A stretch of DNA of 64,000 bases, taken from the IMG/VR virus record IMGVR_UViG_3300045988_095445, one strand, 5' to 3'. The DNA is from a virus. Under the pieces are notes generated by a model. The model was given only the letters and a program-made list of their open reading frames with translations. It was not told where the DNA came from and did no database searches. Every line of letters starts with the position of its first letter. Position 1 is the stretch's first letter. A program made the translations under genes and the position numbers. Shown one piece after another: positions 20,187 through 63,014 of the stretch.

Positions 20187-20249
20187 TCCTTAACTTTCTA
20201 TATATATTATATTATATTTTTATAATAATTTCAAAAGATTCTATGCGTC

Positions 20250-21116
20250 TCAAAATTCGACTGGTTGAATGAGGTCTTCGATATAAAGTCTACCTTCTTC
20301 CTTAAAAATAGGAATATTGAGATCGACGAACCAATAATGTTTAAAATGGATTGAACCATCCTCTCTTTCGGTCTCTTCGCAGTCTTTTATGCAACAAGAA
20401 CCTCTTTGTAAATAGACGGGCAATTCATTCCAATCTATTCCTTTTTGAGAAATAAGCATTTCTAAAATTTCGCTACTACATTTACCTTGAAGTTCACTAT
20501 GAGAAAAATTCGCTTGTCCAACCATTTGAATAGAATTTCTAATAGCATCTAATTGGCGCCAATAAATTAGATTTGTTACTTCTTCTTTCGGAATATTGAA
20601 AACACGAGCATCAAACATAGCCCCTCTTGCGTTTGCTATCCGTAAAGTTCTCATATATTCTTGATGTTCAAGTTGAATTTCTACGCTCTGAGGAGTTAAA
20701 GAATTTTTCCAACCAATATCGTATCTTTCAATAGTTGAACGAAACACCTTATTAAAAATCATTGTTGCCATGGACGCTGCTACAGAACACATTTTTTGAA
20801 CTTCATAATCAAACCATGCGTCGCTATTTAATTTTTTATAGTCAACAAGAATTAGAGTTATTTCATCGCTTTGAGTATATCCAAGAACACATCCTTGGAT
20901 ATTTTTACATAAATATTTCATTGTTTCTTGCATAGCCGAAGTCAATACCGCATCAAATGGTTTTCTAAAGCCTTTAGTAAAGGTATGAAATGCTTTTCCA
21001 TCAATTCTAATTGCTACAGGTGTTCTACGCATAAGTCGAGTTTTTGGAATTTGCTCATAGAACTCTTTCATGCGAACGCCTAGCTGGTCATTCATATTAT
21101 TCATCCTCCTTATCAA
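20250..21116 (-). CDS. Thg1-like protein (tRNA-His guanylyltransferase / tRNA 5'-end repair family).
   Basis: VAIRIDGKAFHTFTKGFRKPFDAVLTSAM matches the Thg1/TLP N-terminal core (RxDGxxFxxFT...KPxD); 288 aa. Confidence 0.55.
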   Translation of the reverse strand: MIRRMNNMNDQLGVRMKEFYEQIPKTRLMRRTPVAIRIDGKAFHTFTKGFRKPFDAVLTSAMQETMKYLCKNIQGCVLGYTQSDEITLILVDYKKLNSDAWFDYEVQKMCSVAASMATMIFNKVFRSTIERYDIGWKNSLTPQSVEIQLEHQEYMRTLRIANARGAMFDARVFNIPKEEVTNLIYWRQLDAIRNSIQMVGQANFSHSELQGKCSSEILEMLISQKGIDWNELPVYLQRGSCCIKDCEETEREDGSIHFKHYWFVDLNIPIFKEEGRLYIEDLIQPVEF

Positions 21117-21829
21117 CAGTAAAGTTGTGTTCGTCGAAAGTATCCAAGTTTAGAAGAACAGTTTTTCCAGACATATAACTGCAACAGTCAATATCAACTT
21201 TATGATTATCACAATACCATAAAGCTCCACCATTATATGAGTAAGAGAACTGTCTATCCGGCGGTAGAAAATTATTTGCATTATCTAATCTTAGAATTAA
21301 GTATTCTGAAATTGGAGTATGGCCATGAACGCAAATTCCTTCGCCTTCGGCAGTATCATAGATATGCTCTCTATCCCATAGCAAATCCTCGTTTGCTGGG
21401 AATGGTTCTTTTGCAGGAGTAAAACCTGCATGACAAAGCATAATGGTTATTCCATTTTTATTCTTATATTCAAGATATAGGGGCAATTTTCTTAGATAGT
21501 GATACCATCCAGACTTAGCTCCATCATTAATCCATCCATTAAAAGTAGAAGCTCCTCCATTCCAACAGAGAAGATCAAAATGAACCTCCTCCATATGTTT
21601 CATATTTAATATAATCTTTCATAGCTTTAACAAGCATATCTTCGTGATTACCTTTAATATAGATAAAACGCGGATCCGACGCGACCGCTTTAATAGTTTC
21701 CCAAGACCGCGGACCTCGATCGCCGCAATCTCCTAGACAATAAACTTTATCTTCTGGCTTTAGAAAGTCACTAATTTTTTGATATAGCTCATACATACCA
21801 TGAAGATCGCTAACTGCGTATACGCTCAT
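21097..21829 (-). CDS. Ser/Thr protein phosphatase (lambda PPase-like metallophosphatase) with a +1 frame break at 21575-21603.
   Basis: DLHG...GDCGDRG...GNHEDM in one frame, then ...FDLLCWNGGAST... in the +1 frame (track ORFs 21575..21829 and 21097..21603). The junction is GGAGGAGGU UCA UUU UGA. Confidence 0.5.
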
Positions 21830-21909
21830 AAATAAAACTCCTTTTCTTATATTATATAAATATTATATCATAAATATTATAAAAAATAAAGAAAGCTGTA
21901 AAGCTCTCT

Positions 21910-22635
21910 TTAAGAAAAGAATGGACAAGTTGGCATAGGGGAAATCTTATGTAAATTTCTCTTATGTCTTTGTTCAATGTTTTTATATATCTCATATGGA
22001 GGAGTAATACCATTAAGTAGGAAATTATCTAGGACATCATAAGAAAATCCTAAATTTTCCTCATCTATTAAACCGCTTAATCCATCCTCTGGAGGCTTTT
22101 CAATGAAGTTCTTTGGCAATCCAAGCTCAATACCAATTTCTTTAACTTCCGTGGCAGTATAATTAGAGAGAATAGAAAAATCTCCTGCTGCATCTCCAAA
22201 TTTAGTAGAATAGCCTACATAGTCTTCACTTCTATTGCAAGTATTCACAACTCTTCCATGACGGCTCGCGGCGATTGCATAAAGGATATTCATTCTTACT
22301 CTTGCTGGAACATTACTTGTAACTTGCGGCTGAATTCTAATATCATTGGGCAAAGACAAGAAAATCTCCTGACAAGCTGAACCAATATTGATGTTGTAAT
22401 GCTCTGTAATTTCGAGGTAATCAATTACCTCATTAGAAACATCAATATCATATTGGAATCCCTGTGGCATTTGTACGGCAATTACTCGATTCGGGCCAAG
22501 AGCCTTACAAAGAAGAGCCGCAGCCACTGTAGAATCTTTGCCGCCAGAAATCCCGATAACAGCTTTACACTCCGGCCCGTTTTTTATGAAATACTCTTTA
22601 ATCCAATCTATAATTTTAGTAACCGTATTAGTCAT
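21910..22635 (-). CDS. nadE: NH3-dependent NAD+ synthetase.
   Basis: GISGGKDSTVAAALL PP-loop; 241 aa. Confidence 0.7.
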   Translation of the reverse strand: MTNTVTKIIDWIKEYFIKNGPECKAVIGISGGKDSTVAAALLCKALGPNRVIAVQMPQGFQYDIDVSNEVIDYLEITEHYNINIGSACQEIFLSLPNDIRIQPQVTSNVPARVRMNILYAIAASRHGRVVNTCNRSEDYVGYSTKFGDAAGDFSILSNYTATEVKEIGIELGLPKNFIEKPPEDGLSGLIDEENLGFSYDVLDNFLLNGITPPYEIYKNIEQRHKRNLHKISPMPTCPFFS

Positions 22636-23569
22636 AGAACTTCTCCCATCAATCTCTCTTTAATAGTTTCGATAGTCTCTATGCTCTCCGTACAGAAACT
22701 TCCATTCTTGACTTTAAATTTCATTACATTGTTCTTATATCCAATGGATTCTTCAAGAGTAAGATTTTCTACTAAAGAATAATTGCCATTCTCCTCTTTA
22801 AAAATTGCAACACATCCACGAGGAGACTTTTTCCCAGGGTCGGTTTTAGGCATTTTATAAATCTGAATTTCATCATTGCCGAGGATACAATCTGTAGCTT
22901 TAATAGCATAGCCTCTAGTATCACGAGTTACATACTGATAAGTATAAGCTCCAATTCCAAAACATAGATTGGATACTGAGATATTATTTCTAACACACCA
23001 AGAGCAAACTTTTTCAGTAATCTCTGGAGTAATGGCATCTCCATAAATCATACGAATATAAGAAGGAAGAATAAAATATCCTTTAGTATTCAATTCACCA
23101 CCAAAAGTTTCTTTTAGAAGATTTAAAGTTCCTATAAACTCAGGAGAACCGGGTATAGCATCTGGGTCGCCGCAGAAAAAATTACATGATCTGGAATCCC
23201 GACGGGAAGAAGCGTACCCTCTGGAACTCCCATGATAGAAATAGGTAAATAACCAAGTTTATGCAATTCTTTAAACTTGGTAAAATCCGCATAATCAGGA
23301 TGGAAAGTGCTTTTAATTACATGATTCCACTCCTGTTCAAGAAGTTCAACTGACTGATCAAAGAACTCTGTCTGCCAAAATTCAAGTAGTTTCTGGATGG
23401 TATATTGATGACCAAAGACCACTGTCTTAGGGCAATTTGGATGATGCTTATAACTGCGAGCTGTCCAAGTAGAATAAACCATAGAAGCAGACTTCGGCTG
23501 CATCTTAATAGCATGACCAACTTTGTAATAGTCAGCGGCAAACATTGGAGCTACATCAAAGAAACTCAT
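22632..23569 (-). CDS. nadV: Nicotinamide phosphoribosyltransferase (NadV/NAMPT). The N- and C-terminal parts are in different frames around 23134-23230.
   Basis: N-terminal part FAADYYKVGHA...; C-terminal part ...CGDPDAIPGSPEFIG...ELNTKGYFILPSYIRMIYGDAIT aligns with the NAMPT core. TAG at 23132-23134 plus a frame break. Confidence 0.5.
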
Positions 23570-61721: not shown

Positions 61722-61724
61722 ATC

Positions 61725-62327
61725 TTATACCTTTAGTCTCTTGTTGAGTTCAGCAATTAGCTCCTCGTTAGTAAAGTCACTAAGAGATTTCCCATTTTTA
61801 TCAAGAATGAAAGCCGGCGCCAGACCGTGGCTGATGCCGTAGTAGGTGTAGCTCGCAGATCCATCGGTGTCGACATAGCAAACGTGGTTCGAGGCCCAAT
61901 TATCCTTTTCAGGGCTTCCCCAAGGAGTAACAAGCCAGAACGAATCCTTGATATGAGGGGTTAGGATATGATTATACTTTCGATATTCATCGAAGGTAAG
62001 TGGTGCAACAGCGGTATTTAGCGAATCATATCCTTTATATCCATCCATTGCAGTCAGGTCGACATCGCGCGGAATAGCCTTAATGCCAGTTTTCTTAAGC
62101 CAAGCCTCAGCGCCCTTCCGCAATGTACTCTCTTTATAGTTATTAGAATTTCCAAAGACAAAATCAATTCCTACTTCAAGTGCAATTACGAAGGGGTTAC
62201 CATCAATTTCGTCAAGAACAAGGCACTTTACTCCATTTACAGTAATAGTCTCACCAATCATATTTCTCTTCCTTTCTTTAATTAGAATACTCTTCAACCA
62301 TTTGAGAAAGCATATCAATTTCATCAT
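61725..62327 (-). CDS. Hypothetical protein (200 aa).
   Basis: Intact ORF. Confidence 0.3.
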   Translation of the reverse strand: MMKLICFLKWLKSILIKERKRNMIGETITVNGVKCLVLDEIDGNPFVIALEVGIDFVFGNSNNYKESTLRKGAEAWLKKTGIKAIPRDVDLTAMDGYKGYDSLNTAVAPLTFDEYRKYNHILTPHIKDSFWLVTPWGSPEKDNWASNHVCYVDTDGSASYTYYGISHGLAPAFILDKNGKSLSDFTNEELIAELNKRLKV

Positions 62328-62485
62328 CTGTTATATTATCAAAAAAGATACCGTATTTTGCGCAGATTTGAGCTTGCTGAGAAGTCCATGGCTTTGAAGC
62401 CAATTCTCGAGCAGCCAGTTCAAAAGCGCCAGTGTATGCGAAAAATGACATATCCATATTTTATACCTCCTCTACAGAATCAAAC

Positions 62486-62839
62486 TCATGAATTAAGATT
62501 GCTGATTTTTTCTGCGCAAATTTCATCGGGACAGTAAACAATATGTCCACTTTTTAGCAAGGAAAGAAAGTCACTTTGATAGTAAGTACGACCTCCGAAC
62601 TCGTTGCGAATTTTATATCCTTCATCAACAGAATAGAGATCTCTTACATTATTATCTACTTCGCATAATCGCCAAGTTGGGTCTCCATTATTAATGCTGA
62701 CTCCAAGAACCGGAATAGGACTATAAGTTTCTTGAATAGCGAAGAATTTAGCTCTTTTGAGTTGGTCTGTATCAGAAAAGCCGAGGAACTCGCAGATTCT
62801 TACAGTGGAGTTCTTATATCCTAGTTCACTAATCTTCAT
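62486..62839 (-). CDS. Hypothetical protein (117 aa).
   Basis: Intact ORF preceded by the conserved promoter-leader. Confidence 0.3.
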   Translation of the reverse strand: MKISELGYKNSTVRICEFLGFSDTDQLKRAKFFAIQETYSPIPVLGVSINNGDPTWRLCEVDNNVRDLYSVDEGYKIRNEFGGRTYYQSDFLSLLKSGHIVYCPDEICAEKISNLNS

Positions 62840-63014
62840 AATTTTTACTTCCTTTCCTTAACTTTCTATATATATTATATAATAATTTTATAAAAAAATA
62901 AAGACACTCTTAAAAGAGCGTCTTTATTTTACATAATTCTCTTGGATGCGGGAATTTTTTAGGCAGAGAAATTGACAATCCCGCGGTAATTTTAATAAAA
63001 TGGTCATAGAGGTA

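Follow-up and report, generated by a model that had tools for sequence, protein, structure and literature searches.

Why does one virus place nearly the same short sequence before so many of its genes? This question is raised by the IMG/VR virus record IMGVR_UViG_3300045988_095445, of which we analyzed a stretch of 64,000 nucleotides (nt), here called the window. An earlier note, made from the letters of this stretch, had described about 20 copies of a promoter-leader cassette in which a −35/−10 pair is followed by a conserved leader. We consider that these cassettes are about 30 strong promoters of the host sigma-A type, each with a short, unstructured, purine-rich leader and a strong Shine-Dalgarno (SD) sequence, and we place the probability of this reading at roughly 0.75. 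Through them, a TAG-recoding gut phage of Clostridia-type Firmicutes would express its tRNA genes together with those early and middle genes that use the standard code. The feature is genuine, although of an ordinary kind, as elements downstream of −10 have already been described for Firmicutes.

Number and Distribution of the Copies

The repeated promoter-leader unit was borne out by counting. With at most one mismatch, TTGAAA-N17-TATAAT matched the window 24 times against 2.57 expected, the largest shuffle giving six matches, and its nine exact matches were found only on the minus strand. The 19-mer ATATATAGAAAGTTAAGGA matched eight times with up to three mismatches, where 0.07 matches were expected. 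A matrix spanning −6 to +17 around the −10 hexamer, with which the whole window was searched, gave 30 credible minus-strand sites of 12.4-34.7 bits, compared with 0.26 per shuffle; the count of copies thus rises from about 20 to about 30. The matrix was trained on 19 of the 30 sites, whose scores are therefore partly circular, and the remaining 11 are independent.

All 17 coordinates listed in the earlier note carry the unit on the minus strand, with TATAAT, then ATWTATA(G/T)AA, and then an SD sequence with ATG or a tRNA gene. Within its own range, however, that list lacked the copies whose −10 hexamers lie at 31817, 38785, 58335, 60769, 59077, 57499, and 37184 (copies are named below by this position). 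Nor is the unit confined to 20188-62920, as had been proposed, since further copies occur at 2785, 5251, 7676, 9070, 13912, and 18669.

The cassettes all lie on the coding strand. An equal abundance of the motif in coding sequence had been named beforehand as a refutation, and it was not observed: 28 of the 31 matrix hits fell outside the calls for open reading frames (ORFs) and RNAs, a space that makes up 17% of the window (binomial P = 6e-19), and two of the three other hits are within antisense ORF calls that are probably spurious. Because the flanks of different copies, beyond −36 on one side and +30 on the other, show no relationship (~27% identity), we regard the unit as a bounded cassette of 55-65 nt. 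A recent segmental duplication was considered as its origin and rejected, this flank identity being random for the composition.

Architecture of the Unit

The copies were aligned on the −10 hexamer (n = 30). A −35 element of the form TTGNNN stands exactly 17 bp from −10 in 20 copies; the consensus TTGAAA that had been claimed for it is exact in eight of the 17 listed copies and inexact in the rest. In six copies, the T-tract of a terminator (TTTATT or TTTAAT) takes the −35 position, and four of these six have TATG. The spacer is A/T-rich, with TG at −15/−14 in 13 copies, nine times as TATG. The −10 hexamer is exactly TATAAT in 26 copies and a one-base variant, TATTAT or TAATAT, in the other four. 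It is followed by an AT-rich discriminator, ATWTA, and by a pyrimidine-purine (Y-R) step at the seventh base after −10 in 29 of 30 copies, the start triplet being TAG in 10 and TAT in 12. The initial transcript is purine-rich, with AAAG or AAAA after the start triplet and AAAG(TT) in the consensus; in the form AGAAAG it holds neither T's nor TG steps.

Before protein genes only, the unit continues with (TT)AAGGAAAGGAAG, 7-10 nt, and ATG, and the TTAAGGAAAGGAAG part was found only before proteins. In 21 of 30 copies, 21-31 nt separate the predicted +1 from a start codon with an SD sequence before it. The copies that drive tRNA genes (53583, 54407, and 55024) retain TATAATATTTAT(A/G)TAAG and then diverge without an SD sequence, the tRNAs lying 82-177 nt downstream. 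The AAGGA ribosome-binding site described after the leader therefore stands before proteins, whereas the copies noted at 53551, 54371, and 54991 precede tRNA genes without such a site. Because the block after −10 is kept before tRNA genes lacking an SD sequence, its role is not only translational. The leader is also not invariant: its 19 nt are exact in four copies only (20187, 50753, 55243, and 62855), with one mismatch at 29229. Its description as a 5′ untranslated region (UTR) needs trimming as well, as transcription would begin only after its first six bases (ATATAT), which belong to the discriminator.

A terminator hairpin lies directly upstream in seven or eight copies (21867, 23605, 25850, 29253, 31817, 60429, and 62879) and is absent from the other 20 or more. 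The leaders are weakly folded, with a median of −2.05 kcal/mol versus −4.9 kcal/mol for random segments, and in leaders of 21-40 nt the duplex with a Firmicute-type anti-SD has an energy of −6.3 to −13.8 kcal/mol.

Promoter Elements and Proposed Mechanism

The 17-bp spacing, the extended −10, the Y-R step, the distance of 21-31 nt to an SD-preceded start codon, and the restriction to one strand and to intergenic sequence all support the promoter-leader reading. Host sigma-A is favored because each sub-block matches a described Firmicute promoter element. In maps of transcription start sites from 49 species, TRTG is common in Firmicutes, the discriminator is AT- or AG-rich and conserved in Terrabacteria, and a 3-bp start element (YRY or YRR, with YRR over-represented in Terrabacteria) centered 7-8 bp after −10 selects the start and raises output; the initial transcribed region of Firmicutes is AG-rich (PMC12641261). 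Compared with this core promoter (Kuo et al. 2025, PMC12641261), the cassette has every sub-block in the expected register, including purines at +3 to +6. Among the functions that the earlier note had offered for the block after −10, transcription-start context is accordingly the best supported, as the block is kept before tRNAs and its parts match Firmicute elements. On the other hand, the cassettes are far more uniform than chromosomal Firmicute promoters, with a 23-27-mer that recurs within and between phage genomes, and they differ from the core promoter in being fused to a fixed short leader and in an AAAGTT that is more specific than AG-rich.

On the favored reading, the predicted +1 would be the A at the seventh base after −10, within a start element T-A-G/T, and this conserved A would make the units ATP-initiated. 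The conserved block would belong to the promoter and fix the start site, and a terminator T-tract may stand in for −35 in some copies. Consensus promoters tend to be escape-limited. A near-consensus promoter limited in this way would gain from an initial transcript that is rich in purines, poor in T, and free of Y-G pause motifs. E. coli polymerase escapes more slowly when the first ~7 transcribed bases contain T's or TG steps (PMC5961368), and by analogy with that enzyme an AGAAAG start may offer an escape advantage. Sensitivity to the initiating nucleoside triphosphate in B. subtilis is likewise governed by the stretch between −10 and +1, and the rRNA P1 promoters of this species start with G (PMC3113569). 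NAD capping, which the +1 A and the NAD-salvage genes of the phage might suggest, was considered and is not proposed here. The long SD sequence near the 5′ end should give strong translation and may protect that end. The sequences show directly how the unit is built, how far its counts exceed chance, its confinement to one strand and to intergenic DNA, and its recurrence in related and unrelated Firmicute phages, whereas we infer which polymerase reads it, where exactly transcription starts, that the units are early, and why, in kinetic terms, the block is conserved.

Recurrence in Other Phages

The exact 23-mer TATAATATWTATAGAAAGTTRAG occurs in at least 120 IMG/VR stretches, and in fact in more, and the species-genome collection adds 62 stretches. 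These genome matches are nearly all contigs of gut or rumen metagenome-assembled genomes labelled Clostridia; contigs of 130-184 kb that carry the 23-mer and were binned into unrelated taxa are probably phage genomes. Among the matches listed, TTGNNN stands 17 bp upstream of the 23-mer in about nine of ten, the others having mostly TTTATT, TTTACT, or TTTACA, and the sequence on the 3′ side differs among the instances listed, being an SD sequence with ATG, a tRNA, or a hairpin. In 483 TTGNNN-N17-TATAAT sites not selected on the 23-mer, the base frequencies after −10 are A80 T71 W T74 A70 T81 A83 (G38/T39) A81 A83, and we therefore regard the downstream preference as general; the extended −10 of these sites reads T87 A59 T82 G51. 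Consensus sequences made for each genome vary in −35 and spacer (TTGACA, TTTACT, TTGATT, and TTGAAA), and all have TATG-n-TATAAT-ATATATAGAAAgT in common.

ACTTTC follows within 45 nt in 19 of 192 cross-phage instances, against 1.4 in controls (maximum 9). The two would pair in a hairpin that begins at GAAAGT, which probably places these bases at the extreme 5′ end of the RNA. In four contigs of Oscillospiraceae, Ructibacterium, and Oscillibacter with 44-52% GC (L128, L137, L158, and L173), the exact 23-mer is joined to a conserved GAAAGTT...AACTTTC hairpin, and a homologous 67-aa (amino acid) ORF (MSKSITVDLDWFNIITAYAEEHC...) follows, readable in three of the four loci; it is probably an early gene of a prophage or mobile element. 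A different addition was observed on the 180-kb contig JAGCPW010000095.1 (L140, L147, L148, L160, L161, and L180), where an extra conserved block, GAAATATCTGGTAGRC, lies directly 5′ of a TTTACT/TTGACT −35. This block does not occur in the window and may be an UP-like element or a regulator site.

Mimicry of host housekeeping promoters was considered but gained no support from the small number of hits in genomes of isolates or of higher GC (Massiliimalia, Oscillibacter, and others): the 23-mer there precedes small ORFs without a family or a helicase, and these genes look like those of mobile elements rather than like rRNA or ribosomal protein genes.

Two phages with known Firmicute hosts, which belong to different phage groups and use the standard code, show the same design. 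Lactobacillus delbrueckii phage PMBT4 (MG913376, 31 kb) carries TTGACT-17-TATAATATATATAGAAAGTTAAGGAAA, identical to the cassette over 27 nt, and Enterococcus phage EF1 (MF001358) carries a series TTGAWW-17-TATAAT-TAATTATAAAGTTAAATAAGGAGG and also ...AATTATAGAAAGTTAAGGAGG. To our knowledge, these promoter-like sites have been neither annotated nor mapped.

The large gut phage phAss-1 of the 'Caudoviricetes code 15 clade' (PMC10607447) resembles the window in its TAG recoding, suppressor tRNA(CTA), genes for the salvage of nicotinamide adenine dinucleotide (NAD), and big tRNA block interspersed with small ORFs. It holds 25 copies of TTGACAyAAAAAAATTTTTRTGR-TATAAT-ATATATAGAAAR, all on the minus strand. 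They are located at 55.8-126.7 kb in 23 cases, in the replication and tRNA block of 42-51% GC, and one lies 14 nt before a tRNA; the plus strand, on which the genes of the first ~46 kb are annotated, has none. The two phages differ in GC content (44.5% versus ~35% in the window) and in the versions of −35, spacer, and SD sequence, and their DNA matches are patchy (~2.1 kb in nine pieces of ~73% identity). Promoters are not mentioned in the phAss-1 paper (PMC10607447), and our literature search found no paper on the motif string or on promoters in stop-codon-recoding phages.

Individual Copies and Their Genes

The copies are described here from the highest coordinate downward, all on the minus strand, with the −10 position, the score, and where recorded the start triplet. 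At 62837..62902 (62879, 32.8 bits), a hairpin with its T-tract (TTTATT) replaces −35, and TAG and a 28-nt UTR lead to ORF 62486-62839 (117 aa), which belongs to no known family and has no PHROG match. Three copies with TTGCAA follow. The one at 60729..60792 (60769, 26.6 bits) has TAT and a 26-nt UTR before ORF 60501-60731 (76 aa). The next, at 60388..60484 (60429, 26.3 bits), includes a terminator hairpin (60484-60458) and has AATG, TAG, and a 27-nt UTR before ORF 60169-60390 (73 aa). The third, at 59423..59487 (59464, 26.9 bits), has TAG and precedes ORF 59117-59425 (102 aa). A weaker cassette at 59032..59100 (59077, 12.7 bits), with TTGACT and TAC, keeps 11 of 12 consensus positions; its target, ORF 58594-59034 (146 aa), has a weak winged-helix match in Pfam. 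TTGACG, TATG, and TAT are found at 58298..58358 (58335, 26.3 bits), before ORF 57524-58300 (258 aa). Back to back with this copy, the plus strand carries a perfect TTGACA-17(TG)-TATAAT at 58380-58408 that faces a 52-aa ORF (58439-58597), and it could be a divergent promoter or yield an antisense transcript. The weak cassette at 57456..57522 (57499, 14.3 bits) serves a GTG-start ORF at 57458, of 35 aa or, with two TAG read through, 106 aa.

The next cassettes precede proteins or tRNAs. With TTGAAA and the exact 19-nt leader, the copy at 55223..55290 (55267, 32.8 bits) precedes ORF 55052-55225 (57 aa). The one at 54999..55047 (55024, 29.0 bits), with TTGAAA and TAT, has no ribosome site and stands 89 nt before tRNA-Ile(tat) at 54848-54923. 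TTGAAA, TATG, and TAG occur at 54625..54686 (54663, 34.5 bits), before ORF 54427-54627. Two further copies are directed at tRNAs: 54382..54430 (54407, 31.6 bits), without a ribosome site, 82 nt upstream of tRNA-Asn (54237-54313), and 53558..53606 (53583, 26.5 bits), without a functional ribosome site, 177 nt upstream of tRNA-Ala (53319-53394). TTGAAA and the exact leader return at 50734..50800 (50777, 32.8 bits), before ORF 50461-50736 (91 aa, phrog_839), and TTGAAA with AATG at 46435..46499 (46476, 31.6 bits), before ORF 46243-46437 and then tRNA-Val. The cassette at 38722..38808 (38785, 24.0 bits) has TTGCAA and a longer leader of 49 nt, and leads to ORF 38392-38724 and then tRNA-Ser.

A perfect TTGACA-17-TATAAT with TG and TAG, matching 12 of 12 consensus positions, is located at 38039..38091 (38068, 30.9 bits); its target is ORF 37715-38041, followed by the suppressor tRNA(CTA) at 37550-37625. 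The weak promoter-like site at 37159..37207 (37184, 12.4 bits), with TTGCAA, is a doubtful member, having no ORF and tRNA-Leu(caa) 375 nt downstream. A weaker cassette at 34610..34671 (34648, 15.1 bits) precedes ORF 34331-34612 and then the vault-protein-like gene.

Upstream hairpins accompany most of the following copies. The cassette at 31776..31869 (31817, 31.8 bits; hairpin 31869-31835) has TATG and TAT and precedes ORF 31467-31778 (103 aa), and the one at 29212..29309 (29253, 34.7 bits; hairpin 29309-29273) has TATG and TAG and precedes ORF 29044-29214 (56 aa). Also after a hairpin, 25815..25873 (25850, 30.5 bits) serves an isochorismatase/nicotinamidase-like gene (25281-25817, Pfam). A weaker copy at 23567..23651 (23605, 15.1 bits; hairpin 23651-23627) serves a NAMPT_N-like ORF (23132-23569, Pfam), and 21827..21912 (21867, 28.4 bits; hairpin 21912-21887) serves ORF 21575-21829 (84 aa). 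TTGAAA and the exact leader are found at 20169..20234 (20211, 30.9 bits), before the AAA_33 kinase-like ORF 19653-20171.

Toward the start of the window, a weaker cassette at 18623..18692 (18669, 18.8 bits) precedes an ORF from 18625 that gives 153 aa with one TAG read through. Another weaker one at 13858..13935, with TTGATT and a −10 of TATTAT (13912, 15.0 bits), precedes the RNase H gene (13396-13860, Pfam). TTGATT is combined with TAATAT at 9032..9093 (9070, 19.9 bits), before ORF 8840-9034 and then the DNA ligase gene, and TTGACT is found at 7633..7699 (7676, 20.5 bits), before a small ORF starting at 7635 or 7620. The last two copies have TATTAT and TATG: 5215..5274 (5251, 22.1 bits), with TTGACA, before a MarR/TrmB-like winged-helix ORF (4822-5217, Pfam), and 2742..2808 (2785, 26.8 bits), with TTGATT, before ORF 2211-2744 (177 aa).

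Genomic Context and TAG Recoding

The window has ~35% GC, and its minus strand carries almost all genes. Pfam scans identified gyrase A and B, an ATP-dependent ligase, PhoH, a DnaB-like helicase, and RNase H, together with a tRNA/RNA-repair set (Thg1-like, RNA ligase, RlaP, and kinase genes) and an NAD-salvage set. At 19093-30845 (−), the latter comprises NadE, NAPRTase/NAMPT pieces, and PRPP-synthetase-like and nicotinamidase-like genes, and the NAMPT-like reading frame appears divided (22632-23093 and 23132-23569). In the same region, the RNA-repair genes encode the Thg1-like protein, the AAA_33 kinase, RNA ligase, RlaP, metallophosphatases, and an RNase_T-like exonuclease.

We assign the window to a large TAG-recoding ("code 15") phage because it contains a suppressor tRNA(CTA) and genes whose domains become full-length once their in-frame TAG codons are translated. 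The suppressor gene (37550-37625, −) lies ~90 nt 3′ of the ORF driven by cassette 38068. With its 10 in-frame TAG codons read as Gln, 14319-15728 (−) gives a full-length lysin with Phage_lysozyme2, Amidase_2, and SLH domains, and 6174-7085 (−), with eight TAG codons, gives a GIY-YIG protein. Likewise, 39078-43306 (−) encodes four tail-fibre-like proteins with two to five TAG each, two of which have weak Mtd_N matches below the Pfam cut-off.

The cassettes relate to these genes in an uneven way. The recoded lysin has no cassette directly upstream. The 7.7 kb between cassettes 38785 and 46476, which hold the recoded tail-fibre-like cluster, are free of cassettes. The GIY-YIG gene likewise lacks one immediately before it, although cassette 7676 lies two small ORFs farther upstream. 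Of the small ORFs behind cassettes, nine of 10 had no match in a PHROG search; cassettes also stand before tRNAs, before genes of replication, repair, and NAD salvage, and before the ORF that precedes the suppressor tRNA. A strict separation of cassettes from TAG-containing ORFs was rejected, as the ORFs behind the weaker copies 7676, 18669, and 57499 contain in-frame TAG once or twice. In this distribution, the heavily recoded late-type genes are for the most part free of cassettes.

Between 36.5 and 55 kb, the window holds 31 tRNAs, a tmRNA (48038-48353, tag DNDYFENYLAA), and the suppressor tRNA; this tRNA block (36490-54923, −) is interspersed with small ORFs and promoters. A 117-nt Rfam tRNA match at 45367-45483 that ARAGORN did not call may contain an intron, and the Rfam search of the window gave no family besides tRNA and tmRNA. 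A relative with 99% identity (L118) has insertions of 694 nt (L118 2648-3342, at window 52992) and 468 nt (L118 3996-4464, at window 53649); the latter falls within the window's tRNA-Asp, which ARAGORN no longer calls in L118.

Related loci with 65-99% DNA identity are human-gut and rumen viral contigs of 80-197 kb, and the window is most closely related to code-15 gut phages and huge phages. The IMG/VR contigs 3300045988_080502 and _084596 and the contig that contains L118 match parts of the window at 97-99% identity. When 10 kb of the window were compared with the phage collection by megablast, only tRNAs matched. An 813-aa ORF at 31874-34315 (−) matches the domains of eukaryotic major vault protein (MVP_shoulder, Vault_3, Vault, and Band_7), and its relatives in the phage collection were only the huge phages LR756500/501/503, at ~40% amino-acid identity. 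A DUF2828/DUF7788 ORF (34726-36246, −) adjoins it.

Discussion

Several observations weigh against the reading of the cassettes as strong host sigma-A promoters. TTGNNN is missing at −35 in 10 of the 30 copies, and five copies score below 16 bits. AAAGTT goes beyond what a general preference for A and G would demand. The identity of −35 and spacer is 0.59-0.73 within genomes versus 0.47 between them, which contacts with the polymerase alone do not explain. The host of the phage is uncultured, and the start sites are predicted from sequence alone. The rest of the phage genome lies outside the window and could encode a sigma factor, although no domain of a sigma factor or RNA polymerase was found among the 40 window ORFs scanned with Pfam. 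In addition, single-linkage clustering of DNA placed 143 of 185 motif-bearing loci in one cluster; because most loci join one cluster, shared ancestry or copying explains part of the identity, although single linkage is too permissive, since tRNA genes chain loci, and one lineage is not separable from several by this means.

Large lytic phages are well known to carry early promoters that are repeated, close to consensus, and followed by standard leaders. The N25-type early promoters of phage T5 (PMC12464699, PMC5961368) are likewise near-consensus, and sequence downstream of +1 is part of the functional promoter, as we propose for the cassettes. However, the work on N25 was carried out with E. 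coli polymerase, and the likeness is one of function, not of homology, known for the cassettes from their sequence.

It is possible, though we hold it only tentatively, that the leader works chiefly as RNA. In this case, the 5′-proximal AGAAAG...GGAAAGGAAG would recruit the 30S subunit at the extreme 5′ end, adding to the promoter function, and would boost translation and shield the transcript from RNase J1-type 5′ decay, like STAB-SD or the hbs leader. The 3′-terminal CUUUCU of Firmicute 16S rRNA is complementary to AGAAAG, and the leaders of 21-31 nt combine weak structure with strong anti-SD pairing. The cassette shares with STAB-SD-type leaders an SD-like sequence near the 5′ end with strong 16S complementarity. 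About 10% of related leaders without an adjacent SD sequence open with the GAAAGT...ACTTTC hairpin, another known form of 5′ protection. In hbs mRNA of B. subtilis, RNase J1 is blocked by ribosomes initiating at a strong SD sequence (PMC5737220). On the other hand, the ATWTAT-AKAAG block is kept before untranslated tRNA genes, its first six bases would not be transcribed, and the SD part varies between genomes while the start-site core is constant.

The cassettes also resemble in layout the promoter early stem-loops (PeSLs) of T4-like phages (PMC2839356, PMC4122927), with a stem-loop in some copies, an AT-rich region, sigma-70-type −35/−10 elements, an SD sequence, and a start codon, repeated in non-structural regions before small genes of unknown function. 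As modules of this kind, uniting terminator, early promoter, and SD sequence, they would be mobile, swap small genes, and be kept alike by recombination. The terminator hairpins of seven or eight copies, the lack of a family in nine of the 10 small downstream ORFs tested, the spacer version specific to each genome, and indels abutting cassettes at 62932 (L039), 25908-26132 (L011), and 29308-29454 (L146) are in agreement with this. We nevertheless consider it doubtful. In a comparison with nine related loci, a small sample of partial loci, indel breakpoints were not enriched at cassettes, and recombination of the PeSL type was rejected as their origin: eight of 28 indel or replacement events lay within 80 nt of a cassette, where ~20-25% is estimated by chance, so that the defining link of PeSLs to breakpoints was not seen. 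The indels of L118 are in or beside tRNA genes and not at cassette edges, and the window's own spacers are no more alike (0.46) than spacers between genomes (0.47). Unlike PeSLs, moreover, the cassettes occur in an unrelated phage lineage with a Gram-positive host, and only about a quarter have a stem-loop; with regard to the T4-like lineage, the window contains no structural genes by which to place the phage.

An operator at the start site, bound by a phage or host DNA-binding protein that switches the early units together, for example at the change to expression of the TAG-recoded late genes, seems unlikely to us. The constancy of −10 to +8 between genomes exceeds that of −35, heavily recoded late-type genes are without cassettes, and two winged-helix ORFs directly behind cassettes (4822-5217 and 58594-59034, both −) are candidates that may be transcription regulators. 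However, there is no conserved dyad or direct repeat beyond AT alternation, known promoter elements already explain each sub-block, and the same block in unrelated Lactobacillus and Enterococcus phages and prophage-like elements would require the same regulator in all of them. Quite improbable, too, is a wider version of this thought, in which the −10 to +8 block (TATAAT-ATATAT-AGAAAGTT) would serve TAG-recoding gut phages as a common point of control, as a DNA operator or as an RNA 5′ tag borne by every early transcript and tRNA precursor, through which a phage factor (e.g., the winged-helix protein of 4822-5217) or a nuclease would shut the early programme once suppressor tRNA accumulates; the suppressor tRNA would itself be driven by a cassette.

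That a phage-encoded sigma factor or RNA polymerase reads the sites instead of host sigma-A is highly improbable: the unusually tight conservation in the phage lineage and the partial view of the genome would allow it, but the near-perfect housekeeping consensus with 17-bp spacing and TRTG, the negative Pfam scan described above, and the same design in small phages such as PMBT4, which from its size is unlikely to have its own polymerase, argue against it.

Conclusions

In summary, two things are new in this analysis, both of them modest. One is the catalogue of a cassette set in an uncultured code-15 phage, largely excluded from its heavily recoded late-type genes, and the other is a single start-region string of 23-27 nt that is common to many gut phages and some cultured Firmicute phages. 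The cassettes offer a natural example in which discriminator, start element, and initial transcript belong to the promoter, without a new principle, and in Clostridia and Bacilli they would be usable as strong, portable parts for gene expression. As a compact search pattern, TATAATATWTATAGAAAGTTRAG retrieves more than 180 loci, mostly linked by their DNA to this group of large gut phages.

For the phage itself, the cassettes provide a ready map of about 30 transcription units. They set apart a standard-code block of early, tRNA, and RNA-repair genes from the heavily TAG-recoded lysin and tail-fibre genes, and the map would place the suppressor tRNA under an early-type promoter. Because the same design is found in Lactobacillus and Enterococcus phages, the cassette pattern points to Firmicute hosts.

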